This document shows positions 4,990 to 63,667 of a stretch of 64,000 nt of DNA, one piece after another. Origin of the DNA: Candidatus Micrarchaeota archaeon. Its GTDB lineage: Archaea; Micrarchaeota; Micrarchaeia; Anstonellales; Anstonellaceae. Within the stretch, counting starts at the first letter, position 1; each line of letters starts with the position of its first letter. The position numbers were made by a program, and so were the translations under genes. Under the pieces are notes generated by a model that saw only the letters and a program-made list of their open reading frames with translations, was not told the origin of the DNA and did not search any database. The stretch lies in the NCBI GenBank assembly GCA_026413965.1, contig JAOAJY010000003.1:27727-91726 (forward strand), read 5' to 3'.

Positions 4990-6954
4990 ATGCAGGATTT
5001 TCAGAGCAAAGAAGGAAAGAACAAGGCTTCTGGAATGGCTTATGGCGAGGCCAAAAGGATTATTGATGGTGCCGGTTTTTTGCAAAGGCCCTCTTGCCCT
5101 GATGCGGTAATCCGCGAGGCAATCAAGGCGAAAAATCCAAGGGAAGCTGCCGGAAATGTGAGATCGGCTCTTGACAAAATAGCAAGGTTTTCAGGAGAAA
5201 GAGCAAAACATGCTTTTGGCGCCCTTGAAAATGAGGATATTGCAAGGCTGTTTGTTTCAAATCCTAATGCTTTTGCCGACATCGCAAATGCGGTTGGAGA
5301 GAATGCAGAAACTGTTTTTTACGCCCTTAACACCAAGGCAATAAAAGAGATGTTTGAGAAGAATCCTAAAGAATTAGCCTGGGCATTAAGCCAGATTGCA
5401 AAAGCTGGCGGAAAGGATGCTTTTCGCTTTTTCTATCTTCTTTTTGACGAAACATACGCTAATATGCTAAAAAATAATCCTGAGGCGATGGTTGAAACGT
5501 TTTTTGAAATTGCAAAGGCAGACCAGCAAGGTTTTGACACTCTGATTATTATGGGTGCTCTTAGAAATGAAAGAATTCAGGCTTTGTTTGAGAAGAAAAG
5601 GCGCAAAACGGTAAAAGCCCTCATTGATGTTGCAATGAAAATGGGGCAGGATGCCTGGCGCGCTTTTGACGCCCTTGCGAATGAAGCAGTTCCAGAGAAA
5701 TTTTTTGAGGACTACCTGGAAGGCAAAAAATCGTTTGAATGCTTAACCTTGGCAATAAAGAGCTCAGACACATATGCAATAGAGGTTGGAAGAATGCTTG
5801 ATGATCTGCACGACAACGAGCCTGCAAGAAGGAAATATCTTGCCTCTCTTTCAAAAGAAGATGTCCTTGCTTTGCTTCTTTCCAATCCAGAGTTTTTCTA
5901 CACTTCCACCAACCACATGCTTTTTGACCGCCTCAACAAAGATTTCAAGCCAGGAGAGCTTGCGGAATACTTGAAGAATATTGGGGTTGAAGGCACAGAA
6001 TTGCACAGGAACCTGATTTTCAGGGCGATAAACTATGACAGGCTATATGGAAAGAAGAACTCAATTTTCAATGGAGAGAGCCTTATCAGCATCTTGGACA
6101 GCCTGCTTGCCCCCCTGAATTCTGGATATGACGCAAGATATTACTATTTGCTTGCTAATGCTCTTGAAAGATTTGACGAGAAAAGCAAACGCTATATAGC
6201 AAAAAAAATAGTCCGGGAACAAGCCAGGATGATTTCTTCCTCTGAAGAGAAAGACGAAAGAAAATGGGTGGCCTTGAATTTCCTTATCCGGAATATGAAC
6301 CAGCAAGAGAAAAACGTGTTTGACGCAAGCAAGTATAAAGACAGAGACGGCAAGCTGCTTGTGGTCCAAATATTTGACAAGGACGACACTGGAAAGGACC
6401 ATTGGTTCCTTTCGCAGAAATGGTTCTCCAAATACGCAAAGCCAAAAAAAGGATCAGATGGCGAGCTGATATATGAAACGGCAGATGCAAGAATTGTGCT
6501 TTTCATGGGGGAGACGGAAAAGGACAACCAGGACTTTTTGAGGAAAATTCTTGACAGAGCCGATGGATTTATTTTGGCTTTCAGGGGGCACAGCTACAGC
6601 CTCAAGCGCAATATCCCTCCTGAGATTTTTGGAAACCTGAAAAAGGATGTGCTTTTTATTCCAGGAAGCTGCGGAAGCTCAGCAGCCATTCCTGAATACA
6701 TGGACACCAATCCGAACACGGCATTTGAGTTTATTGCGAATACCTCAACTGGAAGGGGGCAGGTGACTAACGCTCTTTTGGAAATTCTGATCAGACAAGC
6801 AGCAAATGGAAAGAAGATAACCGTTGAAGAAATAATAAGGAGCAACTCGATTGCTATCCAAAAGAACGGAGGAGACCCTGAAACCCTCTGGATAGGCACT
6901 TTGGGTGAGAAGCTCATAAAGCATGTCAATTCGGCAGGCTATTTTCCGGATTAG
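4990..6954 (+). CDS. Hypothetical 654-aa protein: NP-motif helical repeats plus alpha/beta-like C-terminal domain
   Basis: Contains 4-5 copies of a roughly 35-aa helical repeat (LFVSNPNAF, MFEKNPKEL, MLKNNPEAM, LLLSNPEFF). The C-terminal part has GFILAFRGHSY and VLFIPGSCGS. No family recognised. Sample 5401-5500 is 38 % GC. Confidence 0.75.
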   Translation: MQDFQSKEGKNKASGMAYGEAKRIIDGAGFLQRPSCPDAVIREAIKAKNPREAAGNVRSALDKIARFSGERAKHAFGALENEDIARLFVSNPNAFADIANAVGENAETVFYALNTKAIKEMFEKNPKELAWALSQIAKAGGKDAFRFFYLLFDETYANMLKNNPEAMVETFFEIAKADQQGFDTLIIMGALRNERIQALFEKKRRKTVKALIDVAMKMGQDAWRAFDALANEAVPEKFFEDYLEGKKSFECLTLAIKSSDTYAIEVGRMLDDLHDNEPARRKYLASLSKEDVLALLLSNPEFFYTSTNHMLFDRLNKDFKPGELAEYLKNIGVEGTELHRNLIFRAINYDRLYGKKNSIFNGESLISILDSLLAPLNSGYDARYYYLLANALERFDEKSKRYIAKKIVREQARMISSSEEKDERKWVALNFLIRNMNQQEKNVFDASKYKDRDGKLLVVQIFDKDDTGKDHWFLSQKWFSKYAKPKKGSDGELIYETADARIVLFMGETEKDNQDFLRKILDRADGFILAFRGHSYSLKRNIPPEIFGNLKKDVLFIPGSCGSSAAIPEYMDTNPNTAFEFIANTSTGRGQVTNALLEILIRQAANGKKITVEEIIRSNSIAIQKNGGDPETLWIGTLGEKLIKHVNSAGYFPD

Positions 6955-7501: not shown

Positions 7502-8812
7502 CTAAGGATAGACGCGGTTTATCGTGCGAGGAAATGGTATGGCGTCGCGGATGTGGTCAAGGTTCAGCATCCACTTCACAAGCCTCTCTATCCCAAGGCC
7601 GAAGCCAGAGTGGGGGAATGGGCCGTATCTTCGCAGATCTATGTACCACTCGTAATCCTTGGGGTTGAGGTTGTTCTCTTTCAGCCTGCGCATAAGCTCA
7701 TCATACTCCCAAATCCTCTCTGAGCCGCCGATTATCTCTCCGTGAGCCTCAGGCGCAAGCACATCGGCGTTCAGGACCGTCCCTGGATTGCTTGGGTCCT
7801 CGCGCATGTAGAAGGCTTTGATTTCTTTCGGGAAATTGGTGACAAAAACGGGCTTCTCCTCGTCTTTTGTGAGCAAAGCCTCCTCATCTGCGCCCAAATC
7901 CTGTCCCTTTTTGATGTTTGCCCCGCTTCTTGCGGCGATTTCCACCGCTTCCTCATAAGTCATCCGCTTGAAGGGAGCACGCACGGCTTTGAGCTTTTCA
8001 GGCTGCCTGCCTATAGCCAAAAGAAGGTCAGGATGGCTGTCTGCCATTTTTTGGCAAACGTACTCCAGCATGCGCTCCTGAAGGCGCATGTTCATCTTCT
8101 GGTCGTAGAACGCCATCTCAGGCTCCAAGTGCCAGTACTCGCACAAGTGCCTCACTGTCCTTGAAGGCTCTGCCCTGAAAGAGGGGGCAAGCACATAGAC
8201 GTTTTCAAGCGCGGTGGTGAAAACCTCAGCATAAAGCTGGCTTGACTGGGTAAGGTAGGCTTTTTCCCCAAAATAGCTTATCTCAAAAAGCGTGGAGCCG
8301 CCTTCGCAGGCTGCGCCCGTGATTATGGGCGGGGCAAGCTCCCAGAATCCCTCCTTCTCAAAAAACTCCCTAAGATAAAATATTATCTTGTGCCTAGCTT
8401 TCATTATGTTGGTGAGGCGCTGGCTGCGCAGCCATAGGTGGCGCGTGTCCAAAAGGAACTCTACTGACTGGTCCTTTGCGATTGGGAAAGGCTCGCCTTG
8501 AGCCACTAGCTTCACAGATGAGGCGGAAATTTCGTACCCGCCCGGAGCCCGCGCGTCCTGCTTCACAACCCCCTCCACCAATATGGTGGATTCTATGTAT
8601 GCCTGGGAGGCTGAAATGAACGAGCTTTCCCCTACTGCATCCTTTTTGATTGCGCACTGCACTACGCCTGTGGAGTCGCGCACCACCAAAAAGCAGATGC
8701 CTCCGCTGGTGCGGCTTCTGTGCACCCATCCGCGTATCCTGACTTTGCTATTCGTGAGGGAACCTGAGAGTATGCTCCCAATCTTCGCAAAATCGGTCCC
8801 CAGCGCGTCCAT
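7502..8812 (-). CDS. asnS: Asparaginyl-tRNA synthetase
   Basis: 436 aa, class IIb. Motif 2 is FRAEPSRTVRHLCEYWHLEPEMAF. The C-terminus HSGFGLGIERLVKWMLNLDHIRDAIPFPRT resembles the AsnRS ending (IPFPRT) rather than archaeal AspRS (FPRD). Confidence 0.85.
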   Translation of the reverse strand: MDALGTDFAKIGSILSGSLTNSKVRIRGWVHRSRTSGGICFLVVRDSTGVVQCAIKKDAVGESSFISASQAYIESTILVEGVVKQDARAPGGYEISASSVKLVAQGEPFPIAKDQSVEFLLDTRHLWLRSQRLTNIMKARHKIIFYLREFFEKEGFWELAPPIITGAACEGGSTLFEISYFGEKAYLTQSSQLYAEVFTTALENVYVLAPSFRAEPSRTVRHLCEYWHLEPEMAFYDQKMNMRLQERMLEYVCQKMADSHPDLLLAIGRQPEKLKAVRAPFKRMTYEEAVEIAARSGANIKKGQDLGADEEALLTKDEEKPVFVTNFPKEIKAFYMREDPSNPGTVLNADVLAPEAHGEIIGGSERIWEYDELMRRLKENNLNPKDYEWYIDLRRYGPFPHSGFGLGIERLVKWMLNLDHIRDAIPFPRTINRVYP

Positions 8813-14684: not shown

Positions 14685-16388
14685 ATGGCTTCTTTGGAGG
14701 AAATCATCCGAAAGCACGTGCTCAAAAATGCGCATGACTACGGGCTTGCCATACCTGCCAAAGTGGTGGGGAAGGTGATTGGGGAGTGCCCAGAGGCGAA
14801 AGCGGATATGAAGGGCACCATGAAGCTCATCAGCGAGGAGGCAAAGCGCGTCAATTCTCTTTCAAAGCAAGAGGTGGAAAAGGAGCTTTCGCAATTCACA
14901 TTTGAGGAAAAGAAGGAGGAAAAGAAAGAGATAGAGCTGCCTGGGGCAGAACAGGGAAAAGTGGTCACCCGGTTTCCCCCTGAGCCATCAGGCTATCTTC
15001 ACATAGGGCATGCCAAAGCCGCATGGCTGGATTACGCCTCTGCAAAAAGGTATGGCGGAAAGCTTCTTCTCAGGTTTGATGACACCAATCCTGAGAAAGA
15101 AAAGCAGGAGTATGTGGATGCCATAAAAAAAGACTTGCTTTGGCTGGGGATAGATTGGCATGACGAGACTTACACTTCAGACAGGATGGATGAGCTTTAT
15201 CGCTTCTGCGAGGAGATGCTCATCAAGCATGCGGCTTATGTTTGCACCTGCCCTCCTGAAAAAATAAAGAAAGGGAGAGAGGAAAAGGTGGCCTGCGATT
15301 GCGCCGCCAGGGATGCGCAGGAGAGCATGGCGCTCTTCCGAAAAATGCGCGACGGGAAAATGGAGGAAGGGGAGGCGGTGGTGCGGTTTCACGGGAACAT
15401 GAAATCAGAAAACACTGTGATGCGCGACCCGACTCTGTTCAGGATAATAAAGGCGCCACACTACCGGCAAGGGAGCAAGTATTCCTGCTGGCCTTCATAC
15501 GATTTTGCTGCGCCCATAATGGACAGCCTTGATGGCGTGACGCACGCTATGAGGACAAAGGAGTACGAGCTTAGGAATGAGCTTTATTTCGGAATACTCA
15601 AGGCATTGGAGCTGCGGGCCCCTAAGCTGATAGAGTTTTCCCGCCTGTCCATAAAGAATGCTCCGCTTTCAAAAAGGCTGATAACGCCGCTTATTGAGCA
15701 GGGCAAGGTGGAAGGATGGGACGACCCGAGGCTTCCCACAATCTCAGCTCTGAGAAGGAGGGGAATATTGCCTGAGGCGATAAAGGAATTTGTCTTGTCA
15801 TTTGGAATCTCAAAGGTGGAATCCGAGCCTGGGTGGCAGAAGCTTTACCATGAGAACAGGAAGCTGTTGGATTCCAAAGCCCAGAGAAGGTATTTTGTTA
15901 GGAATCCGGTCAAGCTTGTGGTGGAAGGCGCTCCGGCAAAGGAGGTTGAGATAAGGAACCACCCTTCAAACATGGAGCTTGGCCAAAGGAGAATCCAGGC
16001 GCAAAGGGAATTTTACATATCAGGAGATGATGCAGAAGCCCTGCAGGCAGGCGAGCTTTTCAGGCTCAAGGAGCTTTACAACGCTACGCTTTTGGGAAAA
16101 AGGCAGGATGCGCTGGTGGCAAAATACGAGGCAGAAGAGGGCATAGCCGCAAAGAAAATACAGTGGGTTCCGTATGGCAAGCAAATAAGCTGCAAGGTCA
16201 AGATACCCAAAGACTTGGTGGACGAGCAGGGGAAGTTCATTGAAAACAGCATGTTGGTCGATTCTGGCTTCTGCGAGCCTTCGTGCGCACAGCTTCCGCA
16301 AGGAAGCATTGTCCAATTCGAAAGATACGGATATGCGAGGCTGGATGAGAAAGGCGAAGGCGGCCTTGTCTTCATCTTCTCTTGCTAA
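14685..16388 (+). CDS. gltX: Glutamyl-tRNA synthetase (archaeal type)
   Basis: 567 aa. RFPPEPSGYLHIGHAKAA carries the HIGH motif, followed by LRFDDTNPE. The KMSKS-like motif is APLSKRL. Confidence 0.9.
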   Translation: MASLEEIIRKHVLKNAHDYGLAIPAKVVGKVIGECPEAKADMKGTMKLISEEAKRVNSLSKQEVEKELSQFTFEEKKEEKKEIELPGAEQGKVVTRFPPEPSGYLHIGHAKAAWLDYASAKRYGGKLLLRFDDTNPEKEKQEYVDAIKKDLLWLGIDWHDETYTSDRMDELYRFCEEMLIKHAAYVCTCPPEKIKKGREEKVACDCAARDAQESMALFRKMRDGKMEEGEAVVRFHGNMKSENTVMRDPTLFRIIKAPHYRQGSKYSCWPSYDFAAPIMDSLDGVTHAMRTKEYELRNELYFGILKALELRAPKLIEFSRLSIKNAPLSKRLITPLIEQGKVEGWDDPRLPTISALRRRGILPEAIKEFVLSFGISKVESEPGWQKLYHENRKLLDSKAQRRYFVRNPVKLVVEGAPAKEVEIRNHPSNMELGQRRIQAQREFYISGDDAEALQAGELFRLKELYNATLLGKRQDALVAKYEAEEGIAAKKIQWVPYGKQISCKVKIPKDLVDEQGKFIENSMLVDSGFCEPSCAQLPQGSIVQFERYGYARLDEKGEGGLVFIFSC

Positions 16389-18473: not shown

Positions 18474-19025
18474 ATGTTTATCGGTGGAAAAAAAGGCATG
18501 AGAGTCTTCGTGGCTATCCCGGTTCCGCCAAAGGCAAGAGAGGAAGTGCGCAAGGCGTGCGCATGCCTGCAGGATGCCTTGGGCGCAAGGATGGTTGACC
18601 CCAAGAACTACCATTTCACGCTGAAATTCATAGGAGAAGCAGGGGAAGAAGAGGCGAGGAGGATTGAGGCTGCGCTTGAAAAAATAGAATTTGAGCCATT
18701 TGAGATTGTGGTTGAGAATGCAGGGGCATTCCCAAGCGCAAGAGTCCCGCGCGCCATCTGGCTGGGAGGGCATTCAGACGGAGCAGCCCAGCTTGCGCAG
18801 AAAGTGGAGGAAGCCCTATCTTTCCTGAATTTGCCCAAGGAAAAATTCAGGCTGCACCTGACGGTTGCGCGCTCAAAAGGGATTGCGGATATTGAGGAAT
18901 TCCTCAAGACTGGGCGCGTGTGCAGCTTTGAGGCAGGCTCATTTGCGCTGATGAAAAGCACTCTTGCGGCGCATGGGGCAATATATGAGACTTTAAGAGA
19001 GTTCCCAGCGCAAAGGGAGGCGTGA
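18474..19025 (+). CDS. thpR: RNA 2',3'-cyclic phosphodiesterase (2H phosphoesterase, LigT/ThpR)
   Basis: Two HxT motifs (HFTLKF and HLTVAR) about 80 aa apart. The start may instead be the ATG at 18498 (MRVFVAIPVP). Confidence 0.8.
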   Translation: MFIGGKKGMRVFVAIPVPPKAREEVRKACACLQDALGARMVDPKNYHFTLKFIGEAGEEEARRIEAALEKIEFEPFEIVVENAGAFPSARVPRAIWLGGHSDGAAQLAQKVEEALSFLNLPKEKFRLHLTVARSKGIADIEEFLKTGRVCSFEAGSFALMKSTLAAHGAIYETLREFPAQREA

Positions 19026-22282: not shown

Positions 22283-23665
22283 ATGGTAATTTTGCTCATG
22301 AAGTGCTCAAATCCGGACAAAGCCGAGAAGATTTTCGCATATGCCCTGAAAAGAATCAAGCCTTCTGAAAAAGAGATGCAAAGGAGCTTTGGGGAGGCTG
22401 AAAAGCTCATCGGAAAGCTGCAAAGGGTGCTTCCTGAGGCTGTGGAGGTCCGACTTGCAGGCTCGCTTGCCAAAGGCACCAACCTGAAAGGCAAGAATGA
22501 ATTTGACATATTCCTCCTTTTCCCTCGCCACTACCAAAGGCACGAGCTTACGGTGATAGGCCTGTCCCATGCAAGAAGAGCATTCGCAGGAATGAGGGTG
22601 GAATCCAGGTATGCCGAGCACCCTTACCTTCAGGTCATAAGCGGAAGCTACCTGGCGGACATTGTGCCTGCATACAAGATAGAGGATGCATCAGGCAGGG
22701 GGACAGCAGTGGACCGCTCTCCCCTGCACACGGTTTTTGTGAATTCCCGCCTCAACCAGGCGCAAAAGGACCAGGTGAGGCTGCTTAAGCAATTCATGAA
22801 GAACTTCGGCATCTACGGAGCTGAGCTTAGGGTGGAGGGATTTTCTGGATACCTCTGCGAGCTTCTTGTCGCAAAATACGGCTCGCTTCTTTCTTTGATG
22901 GAAGCCGCTTCTGGCTGGAGCCATCCAGTCATCTTTGTGGACGGGGAGGGGGATGAGAAAGAGGCAAGAGAGAAGTTCACTTCTCCTTTGGTGGTGATTG
23001 ACCCGGTTGACCCAAGCAGGAATGTGGCTGCTGTGGTTGCCCAAACTTCCCTCTCAAGATTCATATTTGAGTGCAGAAGATTCCTAAAATCGCCTTCCTC
23101 CAGATTCTTCTTTTCAAAAAAGAGGATAATGGGGGCTGGTAAAATCAGAAGAGCGATAAAGGAGAGGGGCACTGAATGCCTTGCTGCCCTTTTCCCTGCC
23201 CCAAAAGCCATACCAGACATCCTCTGGCCTCAGCTTAAGAAGACCGCGCAGGCTCTTGTGCGCCTTTTGGAGGAGAATGGCTTTGGGGTGTTTGGCTATT
23301 ACCATTGGAGCGACGGGGAGGAGTGCGCCATCCTTTTTGAGCTTTCCTGCGGCAGGCTGCCATCGGTGAAAAAAGTGGTGGGCCCCTCAATCTCATTTGC
23401 GGCTGATGTGGAGGCTTTCGTCAAAAAGCACAATAGGGCGCTCAATATTCACCTTGAGCATGACAGGATAGTGGCGGTTGAGAGGAGAAAGGAATCCAGC
23501 GCAAAGCGCCTGCTTGCCGGCGCATGCAAAAACCCCAAGGGGCTGGGCGTGCCTGCATTGATGGGAAGCCAGCTTGGGTGCGCAAAAGTCCTGCCGGCAT
23601 CCTCAATCGCATCAGGAAAGAGGCTGGAATTCCTCTCGGACTACTTCTTCGCAAAAATCGCCTGA
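22283..23665 (+). CDS. cca: CCA-adding enzyme (archaeal class I tRNA nucleotidyltransferase)
   Basis: 460 aa. LAGSLAKGTNLKGKNEFDIFLLFP is the class I nucleotidyltransferase signature, followed by AEHPY and VDRSPLHT. Confidence 0.85.
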   Translation: MVILLMKCSNPDKAEKIFAYALKRIKPSEKEMQRSFGEAEKLIGKLQRVLPEAVEVRLAGSLAKGTNLKGKNEFDIFLLFPRHYQRHELTVIGLSHARRAFAGMRVESRYAEHPYLQVISGSYLADIVPAYKIEDASGRGTAVDRSPLHTVFVNSRLNQAQKDQVRLLKQFMKNFGIYGAELRVEGFSGYLCELLVAKYGSLLSLMEAASGWSHPVIFVDGEGDEKEAREKFTSPLVVIDPVDPSRNVAAVVAQTSLSRFIFECRRFLKSPSSRFFFSKKRIMGAGKIRRAIKERGTECLAALFPAPKAIPDILWPQLKKTAQALVRLLEENGFGVFGYYHWSDGEECAILFELSCGRLPSVKKVVGPSISFAADVEAFVKKHNRALNIHLEHDRIVAVERRKESSAKRLLAGACKNPKGLGVPALMGSQLGCAKVLPASSIASGKRLEFLSDYFFAKIA

Positions 23666-25667: not shown

Positions 25668-25775
25668 GGGGTCGTGGCGTAACCTGGTAGCGCGGCAGGC
25701 TCCAGATCTCACCTGCGCATGCGCGCAGGCAACAGAATACACCTGCATGTTAGGGTTCAAATCCCTACGATCCCA
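25668..25775 (+). tRNA. tRNA-Trp(CCA) with a 35-nt canonical 37/38 intron
   Basis: Hand fold: acceptor GGGGTCG/CGATCCC; D arm GCGT-AACCTGGTA-GCGC; anticodon arm GCAGG-CTCCAG[intron 25706-25740]A-CCTGC; T arm TAGGG-TTCAAAT-CCCTA; discriminator A. The intron contains the hairpin CCTGCGC/GCGCAGG. Confidence 0.85.
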
Positions 25776-31592: not shown

Positions 31593-32849
31593 TCAGTGGT
31601 GATGGCTGCTTTCCCCTTTCTTCTTGATTATGTTTCTGATTATGCTTGTTGCCGCTACTGCCGCAGCTGCCATCGCCATTGCGACTAACGGGTTGGCAGC
31701 CACAAGGTTGACCAGCCATCCGGCGACAGCAACAAAGTCATTCCAAGCATTCGAGGCGGTTTGCGACACCACTGTGGCAATGTTGTTCCCATGGCCAATC
31801 CAGCTGTTTAGCGGTTCGGCGACAAGCCGGTATATTGCGTAGCCTGGAATCAGCCATTTTGCGGTCTCCCAGGCTGCTGAAAGGAAATCTTTTGCCGCGA
31901 CTTTCTCTCCTGACCTGAATTTCTGGAACACGTTCTTTATTGCGTCTTTGGCTTTCCAGAGCGCAAAGCCGGGTATGAATATGTACGGATGCGCCACGAC
32001 AAGCCCAGCAGTAAGCTCATTCACCCTGAACAATGTATTGCTTATTGCTATCTTGGCTGCATCCAGTATTCCCATTCCCCAAATCCCAACTTCCTCTGCA
32101 AACCTGAAGATGAGGTGGTATGCCAGATAGGCTTTTGCAAGAGGCCATGCCATTATCTTCGCAACTTTTGCTATCTTTGAGCCAGCCTTCAATTCTTGAT
32201 TCTTTATCACCGGCACAGCATCATCATAGAATTTCCAGCCCAGATATGCTGCCAGAATTGGAATGGACAGGTTGCTTGCTGCCCCCATGACATCTGTAAC
32301 TCCCCCCCAGAAGCTTTTGGCAGTCTCAGCCAACGCGCTTCCGAAGCTTTGCCCTTGCGCCATTTTGCTTATCACAGGAACCGCAGTCACTGCTGCCAAG
32401 CCGGTTGCGCCTGCGGCAATTGCAGATTTGACCGCCACCTCTCTTCCTTCCTTGCCAAATATTTTGCCTGCAAGCTCCTTTGTTTTCTGCCACATTCCAG
32501 CCTTCTCAGCATGCACAGCCGCTGCCTCTTCCACGGAAGATTTTGAGGATTCTTTGGCGTTTGCCATTCCAGAAATTTCCTCGGCTGCGATTTCTTTCTT
32601 TTTTGATTTGGCTGAAGCCTTCTTGGCTTTCTCCTCGTCAAGGTGCTTTTCAAAAAACTCCTTGCTTGCCTTCTTGCTTTTCTTTTCGTCTTTGGCTGAT
32701 TTGCCTGCTGCCTCGGCTATGCCTTTCGCCGATTTTTTCTTTGAGCTTTTCCCCTCTTCAAGGTGCTTTTCAAAAAACTCCTTGCTTGCATTCTTGCTTT
32801 TACTTGAAGAATCTTCCTTATGGGATTTGCTATAGGATTGTTTTTTCAT
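31593..32849 (-). CDS. Membrane protein with Lys-rich repeated N-terminus
   Basis: 418 aa. The N-terminus repeats SK[NK]ASKEFFEKHL[ED]E. The C-terminal two-thirds is hydrophobic. Ends GESSHHH. Confidence 0.7.
   Translation of the reverse strand: MKKQSYSKSHKEDSSSKSKNASKEFFEKHLEEGKSSKKKSAKGIAEAAGKSAKDEKKSKKASKEFFEKHLDEEKAKKASAKSKKKEIAAEEISGMANAKESSKSSVEEAAAVHAEKAGMWQKTKELAGKIFGKEGREVAVKSAIAAGATGLAAVTAVPVISKMAQGQSFGSALAETAKSFWGGVTDVMGAASNLSIPILAAYLGWKFYDDAVPVIKNQELKAGSKIAKVAKIMAWPLAKAYLAYHLIFRFAEEVGIWGMGILDAAKIAISNTLFRVNELTAGLVVAHPYIFIPGFALWKAKDAIKNVFQKFRSGEKVAAKDFLSAAWETAKWLIPGYAIYRLVAEPLNSWIGHGNNIATVVSQTASNAWNDFVAVAGWLVNLVAANPLVAMAMAAAAVAATSIIRNIIKKKGESSHHH
32634..32801. repeat. Intragenic direct repeat (two roughly 46-nt copies, 120-nt period)
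   Basis: TCAAGGTGCTTTTCAAAAAACTCCTTGCTTGC[C/A]TTCTTGCTTTT occurs at about 32636-32681 and again at 32756-32801. Confidence 0.8.
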
Positions 32850-32924: not shown

Positions 32925-33710
32925 CTATATGCCAAGAGCCTTTCCCACTCCTGCTGCGCTTTCAAGAACAATCTGGGGCTTGTCTGAGGCAGGCGCAGCC
33001 TCAACATCCTCCTTTTTTGAAATCCCAGTTAGAACCAGCACCGACGTCATGCCAACCGAATTTGCCATGCGGATGTCTATATCCAGCCTGTCGCCCACAA
33101 ATGCTGATTGGGAGGGCAGGATGGAATGCATCCCCAAGAGCTTCTCTATCAGGTATTTGGAAGGCTTTCCTGCCACAAAGTCAGGCTGCCTGCCTGAAGC
33201 AAAAATCAGCGGGGCTGCAATTGCCCCGCTTCCAGGCGCCACCCCGCTTTTTTTTGGCCAGGTGGGGTCAGCGTTGGCAAGTATGAATGCCGCGCCTGCA
33301 AGAAGATGGGAAAGCGCGCGCTCGTATTTCTCATAGCTTATCTGCCTGTCAAGCCCGCACACCACCGCATCTGCTTCTCCCTCCTCAGCCAAGACTGCTT
33401 TTCCTTCAAGGGCAAGCTCGTCTTTGAGCCCCTGCTCTCCTATCACAAAAACCCGTTTCCCTTCCCCATATTTCTCCCTCAAATAATGCGCTGCCCCAAA
33501 CGAGGAAGTCATTATCTCCTCCTTCCTGGCGCTTATCCCGAACTTCTCAAGGTGCCTCACGTAGTCCGCGCGGCTCTTGGTGGCGTTGTTGGTGAGGAAA
33601 AGCACCTTGACTTTCTTTTGCAGCCTCGCAATTTCCTCAGCGACGCCGGGTATGGCGTAATTTGCCTTATAGACCACCCCGTCCAAGTCAAAAACTATGC
33701 CAGAAACCAT
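32925..33710 (-). CDS. HAD-IIA family phosphatase (NagD/PNPase-like)
   Basis: IVFDLDGVVY (motif I), LTNNATKS, and GDRLDIDI (motif IV). 261 aa. Confidence 0.8.
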   Translation of the reverse strand: MVSGIVFDLDGVVYKANYAIPGVAEEIARLQKKVKVLFLTNNATKSRADYVRHLEKFGISARKEEIMTSSFGAAHYLREKYGEGKRVFVIGEQGLKDELALEGKAVLAEEGEADAVVCGLDRQISYEKYERALSHLLAGAAFILANADPTWPKKSGVAPGSGAIAAPLIFASGRQPDFVAGKPSKYLIEKLLGMHSILPSQSAFVGDRLDIDIRMANSVGMTSVLVLTGISKKEDVEAAPASDKPQIVLESAAGVGKALGI

Positions 33711-33809: not shown

Positions 33810-33962
33810 CCCGCCATAGCTCAACCTGGTAGAGCGCCTGGCTGTAGAAAAACAGGTCGGCAGTCAGCAATTGGGCTGGCAGTCATCAGGATGTTGTGTG
33901 TTCAAAGCCGGGCAGGTGGAAAATTTAAATTTCCTCTGGCTGAACAAATCACACTGGCGGGA
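33810..33962 (+). tRNA. tRNA-Tyr(GUA) with two introns (37/38 and T-loop)
   Basis: Hand fold: acceptor CCCGCCA/TGGCGGG (C1-G72); D arm GCTC-AACCTGGTA-GAGC; anticodon arm CCTGG-CTGTAG[33848-33884]A-TCAGG; T stem GTGTG/CACAC enclosing 49 nt (33901-33949) instead of 7; discriminator A. Confidence 0.8.
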
Positions 33963-33974
33963 CTCTGCCCTCGC

Positions 33975-34132
33975 GCCTCGATGGTGTAGTGGTCAGCATT
34001 CGAGATTGTCGGCATGCCTTTGCTTGCCCATGCGGCAGGAAGGCAGAGCAAAAATCTCGCGACCCGGGTTCGAAAGCTTTCGGCTGGCGCCAAAAATTTG
34101 CCTGCCAAAAGCCGCAAATCCCGGTCGGGGCG
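33975..34132 (+). tRNA. tRNA-Asp(GUC) with two introns (37/38 and T-loop)
   Basis: Hand fold: acceptor GCCTCGA/TCGGGGC (one U-G pair); D arm GTGT-AGTGGTCA-GCAT; anticodon arm CGAGA-TTGTCG[34012-34053]A-TCTCG; variable CGAC; T stem CCGGG/CCCGG enclosing 51 nt (34069-34119); discriminator G. Confidence 0.8.
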
Positions 34133-34163
34133 CTTTCTGTCTTTTGGGAGCGGCGCGAAAGGA

Positions 34164-34691
34164 TTATGAAAGCGATTTCCAAAACAGGATTAGGGTGAAG
34201 AATTTCGCAAGAAATACGGCAAGCCAGAGCTTTAGAGGCTCAATCGTGGTCATCCCCATGAGCGCAAGCCCAAGCTCATCAGGCAGCGGGAGCCCGAAAA
34301 CAAAAAAGCCGACGATCGGATAGGCTGCCTTTGCGCGACTGAACTTTCTGTCTATGCTCTCCAATATGCCCCTCGCGTTTTTCTCAAGGCTTTTTCGCAC
34401 CGCAAGAAAAAGAAGCAGGTTGGCGGTTGCGGCTGAAAGGGCAGCAAGAAAAGCAGAGGCAAATGGGCTGTTGAGCTTCATTAGCTCAAGTATAACCACC
34501 ATGGAAAGAGGGGTTGTTATGCCCAGGGTGTAAAAAACGCCTGCCAAAAGCGCCCCATAATCGCCGAACTCGAAAAGGCGAAGCGAAATGTCCCTGTCAA
34601 CACCTGCCAGCACCAGCATGAAGGTGAGGAGTATGAAAGAGATTGCTATCTTGAGCCTCATGTCAAGGTTGAGAATGCCTGCGAAAAGCAT
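34164..34691 (-). CDS. Polytopic membrane protein, unknown function
   Basis: 175 aa with four or five hydrophobic helices. Confidence 0.6.
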   Translation of the reverse strand: MLFAGILNLDMRLKIAISFILLTFMLVLAGVDRDISLRLFEFGDYGALLAGVFYTLGITTPLSMVVILELMKLNSPFASAFLAALSAATANLLLFLAVRKSLEKNARGILESIDRKFSRAKAAYPIVGFFVFGLPLPDELGLALMGMTTIEPLKLWLAVFLAKFFTLILFWKSLS

Positions 34692-36187: not shown

Positions 36188-37645
36188 TTGAGGGCTGGGC
36201 TTGCTTTTGCAGCTTTGCTTTGTTTTGCAGGCTTTGGATTCGCAGGATTGCTTGAAGACTTCATGGCAAAAAGCTTTGAGCCTGGCATGGAGGTTGAGGC
36301 AAAGCAAATTGCTTCTGGCAGCCATTACATAATAATTCTGGATGGGAAAGAGGCCTATTTGTTTGACAATTCGGAGGGCAAGCCTGTTTATGACCGCAAA
36401 AGAATCATAGGCATCCTTGAGGAAGGCGAGAAAAAGGCTGCAGGCTATGAGGACAAGAAAAAATTGGCCATGAGCCTGCCTGCCGCAATCAATGCCGCCA
36501 AAAACAAGACTGAAGCCCAATGCATGCTTTTGACTGGCACAGACATGCACGAATGCAAAGACAAGCAGACCTGCGTGCTTGCCTGCATGTCCAACCCAAA
36601 CTGCGCAACGCCGCTTTATTCTGATGGATTCTGGGAGGCTTTGCTTGACTGGAGCAGCGCAAGGAAAAGATATGCGGAGCTTTTGGCAAAGTACCAAGAG
36701 GGGCTTGAGGATGCATTGGGGAAGCCTGAGGCGATTGATGAGAAGACGGCGATAGTTTCAGAGCTTCAAAAAATTGCCCAAAACATTTCCCAAAACCCGC
36801 TTTTTTTGAACAGGACGGATGAGGGATGCAGCGGCGCAAAAGTGGCAAGAAGGTGCTATGAGTACTGCCCAAAAATAGACTATTCTGCTTCAAGGCTGCA
36901 GGAAGGGAAAAAGAGCTTGGAGGCAATCAAGGAAATTTTGCTTTCTGCCCAAAAGCAGGCAGAAAGGGCAGATGCCATCCTCAGCCAGAGCGCCAAGCAT
37001 GACGAATACCTAGCAAGGCGCATGAAAGATTTTGCTGAGCTTAGGGTGAAGCTGGCAAACAGTGTAAGAAAAGCCAATATGACATCAAAAGAGCTTGCTT
37101 TGAAGGTGAAAGATGAGGAAGTGGCTCCTGCTTTGAAGGACCTTGAAAATTACACAGCCAAAGTCATTGAAGCTGGGGATTCTGGGAGATACCGCCAGGC
37201 TTTCAGGATGGCTGAGGAGCAGCAGAGAAAATATGACGAGCTTAGCCGAAAGATGCAAGCCGGCTTGGAGAAGCACCAGCAGGCAATTGAGAGGATAGAT
37301 AAGGCGTCTGAAAAAATCAAAAAGAGCAGCTGGCTGCTTGGGAATGAAACTTCCTCTGAGCAGCTGGCAAAGCTTGAAGCCATGAGGCAAGAGCTTCTTT
37401 CTGCCCCTGCAACCTTGCAGAAGATAGCCGAGCTTGATGCGAAAGCAGCGCAGATAGAAAATGAAGTGAACTTGGCCATTTCCCAGAAGGCAACTGAGAT
37501 AGCTTCAGGAAACGAGTCCCTGCCGCCAGAGGCATTGAAAGAAGTTGCCTCAAGGCAGTTGGCAAAAGGCGGCGGGCTTCCCTGCCTTCCTGCAATCGCG
37601 CTGGCCGCAGTGGCCCTTGTGGCTTTTGCTTCAAGAAAGGATTAG
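36188..37645 (+). CDS. Secreted coiled-coil protein with C-terminal TM anchor
   Basis: TTG start after GAGGTGA gives the signal peptide MRAGLAFAALLCFAGFGFAG. A Cys-containing N-domain is followed by a long coiled coil. Ends GGGLPCLPAIALAAVALVAFASRKD. Confidence 0.7.
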   Translation: MRAGLAFAALLCFAGFGFAGLLEDFMAKSFEPGMEVEAKQIASGSHYIIILDGKEAYLFDNSEGKPVYDRKRIIGILEEGEKKAAGYEDKKKLAMSLPAAINAAKNKTEAQCMLLTGTDMHECKDKQTCVLACMSNPNCATPLYSDGFWEALLDWSSARKRYAELLAKYQEGLEDALGKPEAIDEKTAIVSELQKIAQNISQNPLFLNRTDEGCSGAKVARRCYEYCPKIDYSASRLQEGKKSLEAIKEILLSAQKQAERADAILSQSAKHDEYLARRMKDFAELRVKLANSVRKANMTSKELALKVKDEEVAPALKDLENYTAKVIEAGDSGRYRQAFRMAEEQQRKYDELSRKMQAGLEKHQQAIERIDKASEKIKKSSWLLGNETSSEQLAKLEAMRQELLSAPATLQKIAELDAKAAQIENEVNLAISQKATEIASGNESLPPEALKEVASRQLAKGGGLPCLPAIALAAVALVAFASRKD

Positions 37646-37972: not shown

Positions 37973-38368
37973 ATGGAATACCGCTTCATTGAGCATACTG
38001 CTGACTTGATGTTTGAGGCTTATGGAAAGGATTACCCTGAGGCTTTGGAGAATGCCGCCAAGGCTCTGTTTTCGGTGATTGGAAGCGCAAAAGCCTCTGA
38101 GAAGGCGGAAATCACGGTCTCTGCGCACAGCCTTGAGGAGCTCACTGTGCAAATCCTTGCGGACCTGCTTGCCTATTCAGACATACATGAGATGGTTTTC
38201 TCAAAGTTCAAAGTGGCAGAGTTTGACGAGAAAGAAAACAGGGCCACAATTTTTGCTTGGGGAGAAAAAAGAAGGCCCAAAGACTCAGTCAAGGCTGTGA
38301 CTTATCACGAGCTTCTTGTGAAAAAAGACTCCAAGGGCTGGGTGATAAGGGTGCTTTTGGACGTCTAG
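37973..38368 (+). CDS. Archease
   Basis: MEYRFIEHTADLMFEAYG...VKAVTYHELLV. 131 aa, matching the archease pattern. Confidence 0.85.
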   Translation: MEYRFIEHTADLMFEAYGKDYPEALENAAKALFSVIGSAKASEKAEITVSAHSLEELTVQILADLLAYSDIHEMVFSKFKVAEFDEKENRATIFAWGEKRRPKDSVKAVTYHELLVKKDSKGWVIRVLLDV

Positions 38369-45398: not shown

Positions 45399-45501
45399 TG
45401 CGGATGCCGGGATTTCCACTTTCCCGAAACATGCGCCTTGATTTGAACCCGGACCTTTGACTTGGAAGGCCAAGATACTAGCCAGGTTATACTACATCCG
45501 C
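45399..45501 (-). tRNA. tRNA-Gly(UCC) with a 29-nt T-loop intron
   Basis: Reverse-complement fold: acceptor GCGGATG/CATCCGC; D arm GTAT-AACCTGGCTA-GTAT; anticodon arm TTGGC-CTTCCAA-GTCAA; T stem CCGGG/CCCGG enclosing 36 nt (45412-45447) instead of 7; discriminator A. An oligo-T run follows the 3' end. Confidence 0.75.
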
Positions 45502-54270: not shown

Positions 54271-56256
54271 ATGCTGGCTCTTTCTGCTTTTGAACTCACC
54301 CCTGCGAAGGCAGGCGCCAGAGAGTGGCTTATTGCCAACGGGCTGGGAGGATACTCCTCATCCACAGCCATAGGGATGAACACCAGGAAATACCATGGCC
54401 TTTTGGTTGCCTCATTGCCGCAAGGGAGGATGGTTATGCTTTCCAAGCTGGAGGAGCATGCGGTTGTTGCAGGAGAGCAGCTCCCTCTTTCCACCAACCA
54501 ATACCCAGGAAAAGTCTATCCTGAAGGCTACAGGAGGCAGATTGGGTTCAGCTTCGCAGAATTCCCAGAATTCCATTATTCAGTTGAAGGCATGAGGCTG
54601 GCAAAGTCGGTGAGGATGGTCTATGGCAAGAACACTTCGCTTATATCATACAGGATGGAAGGCTCAGGAGAGATTGGGCTTTCAATAAGGCCTCTTCTGG
54701 CCATGAGGAAAATACACCAAGACCCCTCTGCCCAAGACAAAAGCATGGAATTCCGCTCAGACAGGTTTGGCTTTTGGACAGCAAACCCCCAAATGAGAAT
54801 GAGTTGCTCCAATGGCAGCTTCGTTCCCTCTCCTGACAATTACAGGAACATGCTTTATCCTGCAGAGCAGGAGAGAGGATACCCCCACTGCGAAACGTTG
54901 TTTTCTCCAGGCGTTTTTTCCTGCAGGCTGCAGCAGGGCGAAGAGCTGCACCTGTCCGCCTCAGTTGAGGGGATTGCGCCATCCGAAGCGCTTGAGCTTT
55001 TGGATAGGCAGCAGATGCGCAGGATGCACCTGATTCGTGGCTACGAGGAGAGCAGCGGCATAGCCGCCACTGATTTTTCCCAAGCTTTGCTGAAAGCCGC
55101 CGACTCATTCATCGCAAGCAGGAAAGGGAGAAGGCTTATTGTCGCAGGCTATCCTTGGTTTTTTGAATGGGGCAGGGACACTATGGTTTCGCTTCCTGGG
55201 CTGCTTGTGTACACAGGCAGGCACGCTCTTGCGCGCGAAATCCTTTTCGGCTACAGCGGAAAAATAGAGGACGGCTTAATCCCGAACTTCATCACAGAGG
55301 AAGGGGAGATGAGCTACACCTCATCTGACGCTTCGCTTTGGTACCTTAATGCCATAAGGCATTATGCGGAATGGACAGGGGACTACAGCTTTGTCCAGCG
55401 CAGGCTTTGGAAGCCGATGAAGCAAATAATATCAGGATACATACAAGGCAACAGCCTTGCCAGGATGGATGGGGATTGCCTTCTGCGGGTGCTTTCTGCC
55501 TCATCAACCTGGATGGATGCGCAGATTGGAGGAAGCCCGGTGACCCCAAGGAAAGGCAAGCCTGTTGAGATAAACGCGCTTTGGTACTCCAACCTGAATT
55601 TCATGCAGGAGCTTGCTGAAAAGTTTGAGGACAAAAGAATGCTGTCAATTGTTTCGCCTATAATAGAGGCATGCGCCGAATCATTCCAGAAGTTCCTGTC
55701 TTTGCATGAAGCCCAGCTTTTTGACGTGATTGAGCCAAATGACGCGACTCTTAGGCCCAACCAGATATTTGCGGTCGCGCTTCCGCACTCGCCCCTCAAC
55801 AGCCTCCAGAAGAAGCTTGTTTTCAACCTGGTGCGCTCCAAGCTATACACGCCCCTTGGGCTCCGAACCCTTCCCCATGAGGACAGCAGATGCCATGAGG
55901 CTTACAGGGGGAACCAGCAGCAGAGGGACGAGGCATACCATCAGGGCATGATTTGGCCATGGCTGCTTGGCGCGTTTTACGACGCCCAGCTTGAGGTGTA
56001 TCCTTCAACGCAAAAGCAAATCCTCAATTCCCTGCGGCCTTTGTGGGAGAGCATGAAAAGCGGGGAGGGCTGCGCAGGCACCCTCCCAGAAATGTACGAG
56101 CCTGCCACAGGAAAGCCGGCAGGGGCAATCTCGCAGGCTTGGAGCATCGCGGAAATAATCAGGATTTATACAAAAGCCAAAGCCCAAAGAATGAGCCAGA
56201 CTGCATGGCAAGCCGCATCCGCAAAGGAGGCCTCAAAGCAGCTTGAGGTTCCCTAA
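54271..56256 (+). CDS. Glycogen debranching enzyme (archaeal type, amylo-alpha-1,6-glucosidase family)
   Basis: N-terminal REWLIANGLGGYSSSTAIGMNTRKYHGLL, then GYPWFFEWGRDTM, and a C-terminal (alpha/alpha)6-like region containing AYHQGMIWPW. Confidence 0.8.
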   Translation: MLALSAFELTPAKAGAREWLIANGLGGYSSSTAIGMNTRKYHGLLVASLPQGRMVMLSKLEEHAVVAGEQLPLSTNQYPGKVYPEGYRRQIGFSFAEFPEFHYSVEGMRLAKSVRMVYGKNTSLISYRMEGSGEIGLSIRPLLAMRKIHQDPSAQDKSMEFRSDRFGFWTANPQMRMSCSNGSFVPSPDNYRNMLYPAEQERGYPHCETLFSPGVFSCRLQQGEELHLSASVEGIAPSEALELLDRQQMRRMHLIRGYEESSGIAATDFSQALLKAADSFIASRKGRRLIVAGYPWFFEWGRDTMVSLPGLLVYTGRHALAREILFGYSGKIEDGLIPNFITEEGEMSYTSSDASLWYLNAIRHYAEWTGDYSFVQRRLWKPMKQIISGYIQGNSLARMDGDCLLRVLSASSTWMDAQIGGSPVTPRKGKPVEINALWYSNLNFMQELAEKFEDKRMLSIVSPIIEACAESFQKFLSLHEAQLFDVIEPNDATLRPNQIFAVALPHSPLNSLQKKLVFNLVRSKLYTPLGLRTLPHEDSRCHEAYRGNQQQRDEAYHQGMIWPWLLGAFYDAQLEVYPSTQKQILNSLRPLWESMKSGEGCAGTLPEMYEPATGKPAGAISQAWSIAEIIRIYTKAKAQRMSQTAWQAASAKEASKQLEVP

Positions 56257-56583
56257 GTGCTTGTCAATCTTTTTCTCATCAGCAGGGCCTGCGCCAAAGC
56301 AGGTTATGCTCCCAGGCTCAAGCTGCGTCAGCCCTGCGTCGCTGACAAGCGCGCATGGCACTTCTTTCCTCATGGCATCATACAAAGCCAGAAGCTCCTC
56401 TTGGCTTTTGACTTTTAGCACCACTTTTTTTTGCCCTTCTTGCAGCCACTTGGCGCAAAGCTCAGGATTGCGCTTCAGCGACTGAAGGTACGCCAAAATG
56501 GAGGCGTGGGCAGCCTGCGCTGCCGCTTTCCCTTTCCCCATCCTCAAGTCTGCTCGCATGACAATTGCCTGCTTGGCTGCCAT
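56233..56583 (-). CDS. pth2: Peptidyl-tRNA hydrolase, archaeal Pth2
   Basis: Start at the internal ATG (MAAKQAIVMRADLRMGKGKAAAQAAHAS...). Later DAGLTQLEPGSITCFGAGP. 116 aa. Confidence 0.85.
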   Translation of the reverse strand: MAAKQAIVMRADLRMGKGKAAAQAAHASILAYLQSLKRNPELCAKWLQEGQKKVVLKVKSQEELLALYDAMRKEVPCALVSDAGLTQLEPGSITCFGAGPADEKKIDKHLGNLKLL

Positions 56584-56610
56584 GGAGAATAAAAACAATT
56601 TTGTTTTAAT

Positions 56611-57666
56611 ATGCTTATGCTTGATTGGCTGAAAAGCTTCGCTGAAAAAATAGAGCAAAGCGAGTCTGCAAAAATCAGGGCTGCAAAAAAGCTAAGGCAA
56701 GAGGGCTCCGCAGGCAGGCTTCATGGGGCTCTTGAGGAAAAGCTGGTCTACCCGGTGAGCCAGCAGGAGATAAGCGGCAAGATTGCGGCTGTTGACGGCG
56801 GAATTGCCGGAGAGGAGCTTCACGGGTTTGACCTTCTTTTGATGCGCAGCGTGGGAGTGGTATTTGAATACGGCAAATCCCGCATAATTTCCCATTCATA
56901 TTTTCCTTCTTCCCGCCCGCCGATTGAATATGACATGAGAAGCGGGCTGGACAGCCACGAGGTTATTTGGCACAAATCCCTCTTCAGGCTCAAAGGCGAG
57001 CTGGGCTGCGCAGCCTCGCTTATAGAAAAGCATTCCCCAGCCGCTCTTCTTCTTGACGGCTCAATAGCCCCGCTGCTTTCAGACAAGCCCTCAGAGGAAT
57101 CGGAGATGCGGCAGCTTTACCAGGAAGTTTTGCATTCTTACACCAGGCTTTACCAGACCGCATGGTCGCGCCAATGCCTGCTTTTGGGCATAATAAAGGA
57201 CAGCAGAAGCAAAAGGTTCATGGAGCTTTTGAGCAAAAGCCTGGATGGAGAGGAAGGGCTGCGCCACACCACAGACACCTCTTTCCTTTTCTTTCTGCTT
57301 GAGGCTGGGGAGAGGACATGCGCATTCACCTATTCCTCTTCCCCCTCAAGCCACCAGATACTCAAAGATTTGGGTGGGTGGTCAGAGAAGATACTTTCCT
57401 TTTACCTTAAGCCTGTTGAGGAAGACCGGCCTTTGCGGGTTGAGTTTCTTGCTGGGCAAAAGGCATTTGGAGAGGTGGCAAGCCTGGTGCATTCCCTTTC
57501 ATGCATGCACAAGGCTTACGCTTATCCTGCAGCGCTGATAGAGGCAGACCTCAGAGCTGCGCTGCGGGAGGAGGAGGCGGATGGGGCTTATGCCAAGCTT
57601 TTCTTCCGGCTTGGGAAAAGAGCCTCGCTTTACAGGCTCAGAAGGAACAGCCGCCCCTTCAGGTGA
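56611..57666 (+). CDS. NurA-domain nuclease (putative)
   Basis: 351 aa. IAAVDGGIAGEE and ALLLDGSIAPLL fit the NurA acidic-motif layout (D-G-[GS]). Confidence 0.5.
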   Translation: MLMLDWLKSFAEKIEQSESAKIRAAKKLRQEGSAGRLHGALEEKLVYPVSQQEISGKIAAVDGGIAGEELHGFDLLLMRSVGVVFEYGKSRIISHSYFPSSRPPIEYDMRSGLDSHEVIWHKSLFRLKGELGCAASLIEKHSPAALLLDGSIAPLLSDKPSEESEMRQLYQEVLHSYTRLYQTAWSRQCLLLGIIKDSRSKRFMELLSKSLDGEEGLRHTTDTSFLFFLLEAGERTCAFTYSSSPSSHQILKDLGGWSEKILSFYLKPVEEDRPLRVEFLAGQKAFGEVASLVHSLSCMHKAYAYPAALIEADLRAALREEEADGAYAKLFFRLGKRASLYRLRRNSRPFR

Positions 57667-63468: not shown

Positions 63469-63557
63469 TGCGACCGCCGGGATTTCCATCATGCGATTTT
63501 GAACCCGGCCCGCGAGATTGGCAATCTCGAATCCTAACCAGGCTAGACTACGGTCGC
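63469..63557 (-). tRNA. tRNA-Gly(GCC) with a 15-nt T-loop insert
   Basis: Reverse-complement fold: acceptor GCGACCG/CGGTCGC; D arm GTCT-AGCCTGGTTA-GGAT; anticodon arm CGAGA-TTGCCAA-TCTCG; T stem CCGGG/CCCGG enclosing 22 nt (63482-63503); discriminator A. Confidence 0.75.

Positions 63558-63591: not shown

Positions 63592-63667
<76 letters not shown>

Follow-up and report, generated by a model that had tools for sequence, protein, structure and literature searches.

Two adjacent tRNA genes, tRNA-Tyr(GUA) and tRNA-Asp(GUC), were located at positions 33810 to 34132 of a 64-kb stretch of contig JAOAJY010000003.1, which was analyzed over its full length and is referred to here as the window. Judged from their sequences, both genes are very likely functional and are probably co-transcribed, each being disrupted by two introns of the bulge-helix-bulge (BHB) type, one between tRNA positions 37 and 38 (37/38) and one between positions 59 and 60 of the T-loop (59/60). 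What was observed directly comprises the structure of the genes, the positions of the intron boundaries to within 1 to 2 nt, the BHB-type pairings, and the conservation and covariation among related genomes.

Neither gene was recognized in its unspliced form. ARAGORN gave zero calls at 33810 to 34132, both with default settings and with its intron option (-i), and Rfam returned no match in this region at the gathering threshold. With a permissive E value, the only Rfam match at the locus was a partial and mis-framed tRNA hit of 13.9 bits, and no other family was found on the introns. A call obtained on the raw region with relaxed ARAGORN settings (-ps80) was also mis-framed and was discarded. 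Following in silico removal of the four intervals listed as introns in Table 1, ARAGORN called tRNA-Tyr(GTA) with a length of 74 nt and tRNA-Asp(GTC) with a length of 72 nt. Both spliced tRNAs displayed a full cloverleaf with U8, G18G19, U33, and the T-loop TTCRAAT. As a control for chance, deletions of identical geometry were made at 17,734 (Tyr) and 17,726 (Asp) other positions and strands of the window, yielding 0 ARAGORN calls.

The tRNA-Tyr gene extends from 33810 to 33962 on the forward strand. Its acceptor stem, CCCGCCA/TGGCGGG, opens with the pair C1-G72, which is an identity element of archaeal/eukaryal-type tRNA-Tyr and was found together with the GUA anticodon; the pair was unchanged in 9/9 orthologous genes. 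G37 and A38 are separated by 37 nt. The T stem GTGTG/CACAC (33896 to 33900 and 33950 to 33954) encloses 49 nt, and the 42 extra nucleotides form a hairpin around GGAAA/UUUCC in the minimum free energy (MFE) fold. The tRNA-Asp gene (33975 to 34132, forward strand) has the acceptor stem GCCTCGA/TCGGGGC, an insert of 42 nt directly after G37, and a T stem, CCGGG/CCCGG, enclosing 51 nt, of which 44 are extra. CCA is encoded by neither gene. Two open reading frames (ORFs) that overlie the conserved tRNA exons, 33871 to 34323 (forward strand) and 33949 to 34182 (reverse strand), were judged spurious.

An earlier sequence-only reading of this region had stated that each cloverleaf is completed only by removing two segments, that tRNA-Tyr bears the archaeal/eukaryal C1-G72 pair, and that the additional nucleotides of its T-loop self-pair. 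All of this held: every coordinate, length, and stem it quoted for the two genes proved correct on re-reading, the hairpin was seen in the MFE fold, and ARAGORN, which that reading had proposed to run with intron options, called the spliced forms only.

Table 1. Coordinates of tRNA genes, their exons and introns, and other features of the window
Feature	Position	Strand	Description and basis
TATA-like A/T-rich box ATATTTAAA	33770-33778	+	~36 nt upstream of mature Tyr 5' end; putative promoter
Tyr exon 1	33810-33847	+	Positions 1-37: acceptor 5' strand, D arm, anticodon-stem 5' strand, anticodon GTA; ARAGORN on spliced sequence
Tyr intron 1	33848-33884	+	37 nt, position 37/38; geometry check and alignment
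Tyr exon 2	33885-33906	+	Positions 38-59: anticodon-stem 3' strand, variable loop, T-stem 5' strand, T-loop 54-59
Tyr intron 2	33907-33948	+	42 nt, T-loop, written as 59/60 (58/59 also compatible)
Tyr exon 3	33949-33962	+	U60, T-stem 3' strand, acceptor 3' strand, discriminator A73; identical in 9/9 genomes
Tyr-Asp spacer CTCTGCCCTCGC	33963-33974	+	12 nt; read from sequence
Asp exon 1	33975-34011	+	Positions 1-37; ARAGORN on spliced sequence
Asp intron 1	34012-34053	+	42 nt, position 37/38; geometry check
Asp exon 2	34054-34074	+	Positions 38-59; spliced call and orthologues
Asp intron 2	34075-34118	+	44 nt, T-loop 59/60; fold, geometry, and homologous introns
Asp exon 3	34119-34132	+	U60, T-stem 3' strand, acceptor 3' strand, discriminator G73
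T-rich tract CTTTCTGTCTTTTGG	34133-34147	+	Putative archaeal oligo-T terminator; read from sequence
tRNA-Trp(CCA)	25668-25775	+	35-nt intron 25706-25740 at 37/38 or 38/39; Rfam at gathering threshold
tRNA-Gly(UCC)	45399-45501	-	29-nt intron 45413-45441, T-loop 59/60; custom scan and direct reading
tRNA-Gly(GCC)	63469-63557	-	15-nt T-loop intron 63483-63497, hBH/BHL type; custom scan and direct reading
tRNA-Gly(CCC)	63593-63667	-	Uninterrupted; sole default ARAGORN call in window; also Rfam
HAD-IIA hydrolase	32925-33710	-	100 nt upstream of tRNA-Tyr, pointing away
Archease	37973-38368		RtcB cofactor; 4 kb downstream of tRNA pair
CCA-adding enzyme	22283-23665
LigT-like 2H phosphoesterase	18474-19025
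PTH2	56233-56658
AspRS	7502-8812
GluRS	14685-16388

Conservation in related genomes

Tyr and Asp genes were compared with those of eight related genomes or contigs (L001, L003, L005, L008, L009, L011, L012, and L089). Seven of these were reached by synteny via the neighboring HAD gene and L089 via a DNA pattern match in metagenomes. All nine Tyr genes, that of the window included, contained introns both at 37/38 (25 to 122 nt) and in the T-loop (42 to 147 nt), and all nine spliced in silico to a valid tRNA-Tyr; no intron-less Tyr orthologue was present among the eight relatives. The Tyr exons were 92 to 100% identical in seven of the eight orthologues and the introns diverged freely, with a core of the 37/38 intron conserved in eight genomes. 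The T-loop junction TTCAA-N...GAACA(A/G)-A|T, in which the vertical line marks the predicted cut, was kept in 7/9 genes, the exceptions being L012 (GGGAAAAAA|T) and L089 (GAACATA|T). Across the distinct sequences, the spliced Tyr cloverleaf was 100% paired, and three pairs had changed on both sides. Two of the three, 27-43 and 28-42, are located in the anticodon stem that is split by the intron. This covariation across the intron indicates selection on the spliced RNA.

The spliced tRNA-Asp was 92 to 99% identical to seven orthologues, those of L003, L005, and L009 among them, and here the occupancy of the two sites varied. The gene is uninterrupted in L003, L005, and L009. Both sites are also free of introns in L001 and L011, where the tRNA 3' end is repeated downstream; such a repeat is likewise found in L008, which has a 51-nt intron at 37/38 and none in the T-loop. 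L012 and L089 carry only a T-loop intron, of 41 and 40 nt, respectively. The 37/38 intron of the window gene was thus missing in seven of the eight orthologues, L008 holding a different intron at the same site with weak similarity to it (z 2.6, P ~0.02). The window T-loop intron was homologous to those of L012 and L089 (alignment z of 10.5 and 11.6), and the five remaining orthologues had an unbroken T-loop site. A search of metagenomes by pattern for Asp T-loop introns gave one contig, too few for covariation statistics on this motif.

Across the junctions, the Asp exon sequence was identical in interrupted and uninterrupted genes, and the Asp inserts of the window are therefore true introns. 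On the strength of these alignments, the window inserts are best described as discrete heritable introns at exact positions and not as products of decay. The comparison shows a doubly interrupted tRNA-Tyr that is ancient and fixed in the clade, together with a tRNA-Asp caught in differing intron states. With the Tyr pair fixed in 9/9 genomes and the Asp introns variable, the four introns were acquired at different times.

In most relatives, the spacer between the two genes was 32 to 137 nt long. A TATTTATATT- or TTTTATATT-type box was present immediately after Tyr in L001, L003, L008, and L011, and in L009 a TATA-like box was found deeper in the spacer. No second TATA-like box was detected in the 12-nt spacer of the window or in the 16-nt spacer of L012, and a dicistronic precursor is therefore implied for both. 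The box upstream of the window Tyr gene is the putative single promoter of this precursor. The longer spacers with a box suggest that tRNA-Asp has an independent promoter in those relatives.

The second 3' ends consist of the T-stem 3' strand and the acceptor 3' strand. They recur 81 to 90 nt downstream of the Asp gene and are followed by oligo-T in L001 (3042 to 3146, reverse strand), L008 (772 to 865, forward strand), and L011 (1312 to 1414, forward strand). For L008, the C4-G69 pair forms with the second copy only. The Tyr 3' end is duplicated in the same manner in L089 (2890 to 2997, reverse strand). Such duplications may represent either an additional 3' intron opening with a pseudo-exon or a scar of att type left by an integrated element. 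No duplicated exon fragments were found in the window. Rfam reported only tRNA on the related loci, and small ORFs placed by gene callers near the tRNA genes of L001 belonged to no family.

Splice-site structure

The junctions were tested for the canonical BHB motif. In this motif, a 4-bp central helix (H) is flanked by two 3-nt bulges, beyond which lie an outer helix (h) on one side and an inner helix (h') on the other; each cut falls behind the second nucleotide of a bulge. The geometry check found a BHB motif, near-strict or relaxed, at the junctions of all four introns, which bears out the proposal of the sequence-only reading that the precursors be folded in search of such motifs at both sites of both genes. 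In the MFE folds, both precursors retained their acceptor and T stems, and the T-loop intron formed an enclosed hairpin.

The Asp intron at 59/60 showed a near-strict hBHBh' structure with 3-4-3 spacing: h is provided by the T stem, AA|U60 makes up the 3' bulge, and A58 A59|A makes up the 5' bulge. Its H helix, UUCG/CGCA, forms three of four pairs with one U-C mismatch, and h' (GCUUU/AAAGC, 5 bp) is extended by GGCUGGC/GCCUGCC. For both 37/38 introns, the anticodon stem forms a canonical h. In Tyr it is combined with the 3-nt 3' bulge UC|A and the 4-bp H helix CUGU/GCAG, in which C32 to U35 pair with GCAG; the h' hairpin CAGC-AAUUGG-GCUG lies directly 5' of H, and the 5' splice site is placed in a loop of ~19 nt (hBH or bulge-helix-loop [BHL] type). 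In Asp, the 3' bulge is AA|A and H is UUGU/GCAA, and a 5' bulge of ~5 nt (CG|GCA) precedes the h' helix UGCCUU/AAGGCA. The Tyr intron at 59/60 forms a relaxed BHB with the T stem as h, a 5-nt 3' bulge (CAAA|U), the H helix UUCA/UGAA, and a 2-nt 5' bulge (AA|). Its h' comprises 6 bp (GCCGGG/UCUGGC) and runs into the GGAAA/UUUCC hairpin. A strict 3-4-3 BHB was tried for this intron and rejected, as only one of four H pairs was formed.

Conservation extended to these elements. The H-forming GAA and the 5-nt bulge before the T stem were found in 9/9 Tyr genes. An alignment of the Tyr 37/38 mini-substrate from eight genomes was 100% paired, and its h' (C-R-R-C/G-Y-Y-G) exhibited compensatory G-C to A-U exchanges at two pairs. 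As the loop nucleotides are under constraint, the H pairs were invariant and supplied no covariation evidence.

Owing to runs of A, the register of T-loop splicing is ambiguous by sequence, and several registers of the deletion yield the same spliced product. Register 57/58 was rejected for the Tyr T-loop intron, since L001 would receive a G at the conserved A58. Either 58/59 or 59/60 would be compatible with the Tyr sequences, and BHB geometry favors 59/60. The same site is supported by two tRNA-Gly genes of the window, Gly(UCC) and Gly(GCC), as their motifs are canonical, with an AA|U60 bulge and the 4-bp H helix UUCA/UGGA.

Processing machinery and alternative explanations

The host is, by its protein matches, a DPANN archaeon of Candidatus Micrarchaeota, the phylum of ARMAN-2. 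The product of the HAD-IIA gene next to tRNA-Tyr was 100% identical to an NCBI protein labeled "MAG: Candidatus Micrarchaeota archaeon" (MAG, metagenome-assembled genome), and its organism-named close relatives were all Micrarchaeota or Micrarchaeia. The window also encodes an archaeal-type GluRS, V-ATPase subunit I, and a LonB-like ATPase.

A processing pathway was inferred from established archaeal tRNA processing. Transcription from a promoter near 33770 would yield a Tyr-Asp precursor, the ends of which would be trimmed by RNase P and RNase Z. In this precursor, the anticodon stem or the T stem would act as the outer helix, and loop nucleotides 32 to 35 or 54 to 57 would pair with the 3' end of the intron, leaving the splice sites exposed in bulged or looped nucleotides. 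Both sites of each intron would be cut by a splicing endonuclease (EndA) of broad specificity, the form known from the phylum being the three-unit epsilon2 enzyme; RtcB with Archease would ligate the exons, and the CCA-adding enzyme would supply the 3' CCA. EndA types that cut noncanonical or relaxed motifs are the epsilon2 form carrying an ASL loop, the (alpha-beta)2 form carrying a CSL loop, and a loop-bearing alpha4. We infer that this host would possess an EndA of relaxed specificity. Genes for Archease and the CCA-adding enzyme are present in the window (Table 1); EndA and RtcB were not among its tRNA-related genes.

An ORF of 485 amino acids (36188 to 37645) adjoins the Archease gene and had no Pfam match. 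The same was true of four long ORFs of 418 to 654 amino acids at 2917 to 4866, 61117 to 62784, and 31593 to 32849 on the reverse strand and at 4990 to 6954 on the forward strand, three of which were also scanned against NCBIfam without a match.

A query with the catalytic EndA unit of ARMAN-2, as given in the PDB 4fz2 alignment, retrieved close homologues in metagenomes. One was named Candidatus Micrarchaeia, and none was linked to this MAG. On two contigs, L087 (2446 to 3615) and L088 (2379 to 3555), both on the forward strand, an EndA gene of ~1,170 nt encodes an N-terminal domain followed by a catalytic domain in the three-unit epsilon layout, which shows, at the level of gene sequence, that this type is not confined to ARMAN-2. 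Gene calling had split each into two ORFs separated by a gap of 270 to 300 nt. Reading L087 in three frames gave one frameshifted three-unit gene of ~390 amino acids, and L088 had the same layout. The frameshifts in L087 are probably assembly errors. Automated annotation would misassign the enzyme type in both cases.

In ARMAN-2 (Candidatus Micrarchaeum acidiphilum), pre-tRNA-Cys(GCA) contains a 13-nt hBH intron at 59/60, and pre-tRNA-Pro(GGG) contains two T-loop introns, at 53/54 and 59/60; its epsilon2 EndA cuts strict 37/38 and 59/60 hBH substrates in vitro (Fujishima et al. 2011, PMC3239211). The breadth of this enzyme was later tied to a specific loop, and further disrupted tRNA genes are likely to have gone undetected in new DPANN genomes (PMC5829648; PMC12397907). 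Position 59/60 is among the known noncanonical sites, and ARMAN-1 and ARMAN-2 are among the lineages with multi-intron tRNA genes (PMC4090602; PMC4033280). The window genes share with ARMAN-2 the phylum, the T-loop position 59/60, several introns per gene, relaxed hBH/BHL or strict hBHBh' motifs with the T stem as the outer helix, and a high disrupted fraction (56% in ARMAN-2 versus 5/6 genes in the window). The Gly(GCC) intron is, moreover, of the same hBH/BHL type as that of ARMAN-2 tRNA-Cys. The window genes differ in tRNA species and intron sequences, in combining 37/38 with 59/60 in two adjacent, probably co-transcribed genes, in the length of the Tyr and Asp T-loop introns (42 to 44 nt versus 13 nt), and in the 5-nt 3' bulge of the Tyr motif. 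The layout is already known from ARMAN-2, and the window genes are further examples of it and no new kind of system. The sequence-only reading had proposed such double introns for a lineage with a relaxed-specificity splicing endonuclease and had named ARMAN/DPANN as one candidate, in agreement with the Micrarchaeota host, the matching junctions of intron-free Asp genes, the BHB motifs, and the ARMAN-2 precedent (PMC3239211).

Thermoproteales and other Crenarchaeota with (alpha-beta)2 EndA have tRNA genes with as many as three BHB introns, at canonical and noncanonical sites including 59/60, and intron transposition between genes has been described for them (Sugahara 2008 and Fujishima 2010, reviewed in PMC4033280 and PMC4090602). 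The relaxed motifs and the differences in intron content between related genomes are common to both groups. However, Thermoproteales belong to the TACK superphylum instead of DPANN and have a different endonuclease architecture, and the four Tyr and Asp introns of the window are mutually unrelated in sequence. Canonical archaeal 37/38 introns reportedly form the hBHBh' motif cut by alpha4 or alpha'2 EndA, as is said to have been set out by Marck and Grosjean in 2003. The anticodon stem, 3-nt 3' bulge, and 4-bp H of the Tyr and Asp 37/38 introns are exactly canonical, whereas their 5' loops are enlarged (~19 nt in Tyr and ~5 nt in Asp), which a strict-specificity enzyme might refuse.

Several observations weigh against two functional genes with BHB introns. 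The 5' splice sites of both 37/38 introns are located in enlarged loops and not in 3-nt bulges, and strict cutting of the Tyr T-loop intron 2 nt past H at both sites gives no 7-nt T-loop. EndA (PF01974) was not found by Pfam in the 64-kb window (57 ORFs, 10 of them rescanned at an E value of 0.01), and a phmmer search with Methanocaldococcus jannaschii EndA against all six-frame ORFs of the window was negative. In addition, the inspection covered 64 kb of the genome, and intact gene copies could lie beyond it. Were that the case, the two loci might be decaying pseudogenes with insertions, with functional tRNA-Tyr and tRNA-Asp provided by intact genes elsewhere, and the failure of standard tRNA finders to call them would be in line with this. 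We regard decay as very improbable, as the exons retain every cloverleaf pair and the conserved nucleotides, the inserts are placed exactly at BHB-forming sites, and the doubly interrupted Tyr gene is kept in all nine genomes, with near-invariant exons, compensated stems, and introns free to diverge. DPANN genomes are small and their tRNA genes are usually single copy, which also counts against intact duplicates.

Even less credible is the idea that the T-loop inserts are not EndA introns and are either removed by another route or retained as T-arm expansions. It would accommodate the deviation of the Tyr T-loop motif from the 3-4-3 BHB rule and the lack of an endonuclease gene in the window. 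Against this, a T-loop of 49 to 51 nt is incompatible with the conserved T-loop/D-loop fold. Asp orthologues have an ordinary 7-nt loop at this place. Group I or II introns are much longer than these inserts, and Rfam found nothing there. Introns of the 59/60 hBH type are, furthermore, proven EndA substrates in the same phylum (PMC3239211). Least plausible of all is that the inserts are assembly artifacts or scars of integrated and excised mobile elements (att-site remnants): tRNA genes are often integration targets and duplicated 3' ends do occur in four of the relatives, but the window lacks such duplications, its inserts of 37 to 44 nt are hairpin-shaped, the same sites are filled in independently assembled MAGs and metagenome contigs, and the Asp T-loop insert is homologous across three assemblies.

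Preferred intron sites and a shared intron module

Besides Tyr and Asp, four tRNA genes were identified in the window (Table 1). Gly(UCC) was missed by ARAGORN and gave only a mis-framed Rfam match of 28.7 bits (45428 to 45501). Gly(GCC), which stands in tandem with Gly(CCC) at a distance of 36 nt, was missed by both programs. Five of the six tRNA genes are disrupted, with an intron at 59/60 in four and at 37/38 in three. The sequence-only reading had considered it unusual that adjacent genes share the same pair of insertion positions. This did not stand up to these counts, and the shared pair reflects two sites preferred genome-wide and no special event. The four Tyr and Asp introns had no sequence kinship to one another. 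A comparison of the window introns with one another and with other loci revealed no paralogy, apart from the Asp T-loop intron with those of L012 and L089 and the Tyr 37/38 core.

Of the six tRNA genes of the window, four (Tyr, Asp, Gly-UCC, and Gly-GCC) were overlooked by both ARAGORN and Rfam; counts of "missing tRNAs" based on MAGs are therefore inflated for Micrarchaeota and other DPANN members. Searches that allow for introns should come before any conclusion on host dependence in DPANN genomes. The genes widen the picture obtained from ARMAN-2 to more uncultured Micrarchaeia. They also offer natural substrates for examining the motif tolerance of EndA, namely, the T-loop motif with the 5-nt bulge and the 37/38 motifs with large 5' loops.

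The relatives of this MAG share an intron module, GAACCCTTTT-(variable hairpin)-AAAAGCGTTCACGGAAAA, which lies at or within ~3 nt of the intron 5' end and was not present in the window. It occupies Tyr 59/60 in L001 (~3250 to 3330, reverse strand) and L011 (~1030 to 1100, forward strand), Tyr 37/38 in L005 (~3800 to 3905, reverse strand), Tyr 37/38 and Asp 37/38 in L008 (~397 to 518 and ~700 to 750, forward strand), and 37/38 of tRNA-Ile(GAU) in L014 (~800 to 930, reverse strand). The L014 copy was near-identical to those of L001 and L011, and L014 is a distant relative, its HAD protein being 44% identical to that of the window. An uninterrupted form, ~(G)AACCCTTTA-AAAAGCGTTCACGGAAAA, was encountered on three IMG/VR contigs classed as viral: L094 (~2363, reverse strand), L095 (~3724, reverse strand), and L097 (~918, forward strand). 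There it lies outside any recognizable tRNA, with an A/T core similar to an archaeal TATA box. The remaining 11 viral matches to the 17-mer had no upstream half and were in unrelated sequence.

The distribution of the module across sites and tRNAs resembles the intron transposition of Thermoproteales. Because the double-intron layout of Tyr is fixed in 9/9 genomes while its contents turn over, the module recurs, and the uninterrupted form exists in IMG/VR, we entertain the speculative and rather doubtful possibility that mobile intron RNA or DNA has long used 37/38 and 59/60 as landing pads in this clade of Micrarchaeia. If the Asp introns of the window had arrived likewise, this would amount to active intron transposition in DPANN, possibly linked to viruses or plasmids, and to a second independent case beside Thermoproteales.

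The intron of tRNA-Trp(CCA) did not form a strict H helix (two of four pairs). Within it, a palindromic hairpin, CCUGCGC-AU-GCGCAGG, repeats the sequence of the two anticodon-stem strands.

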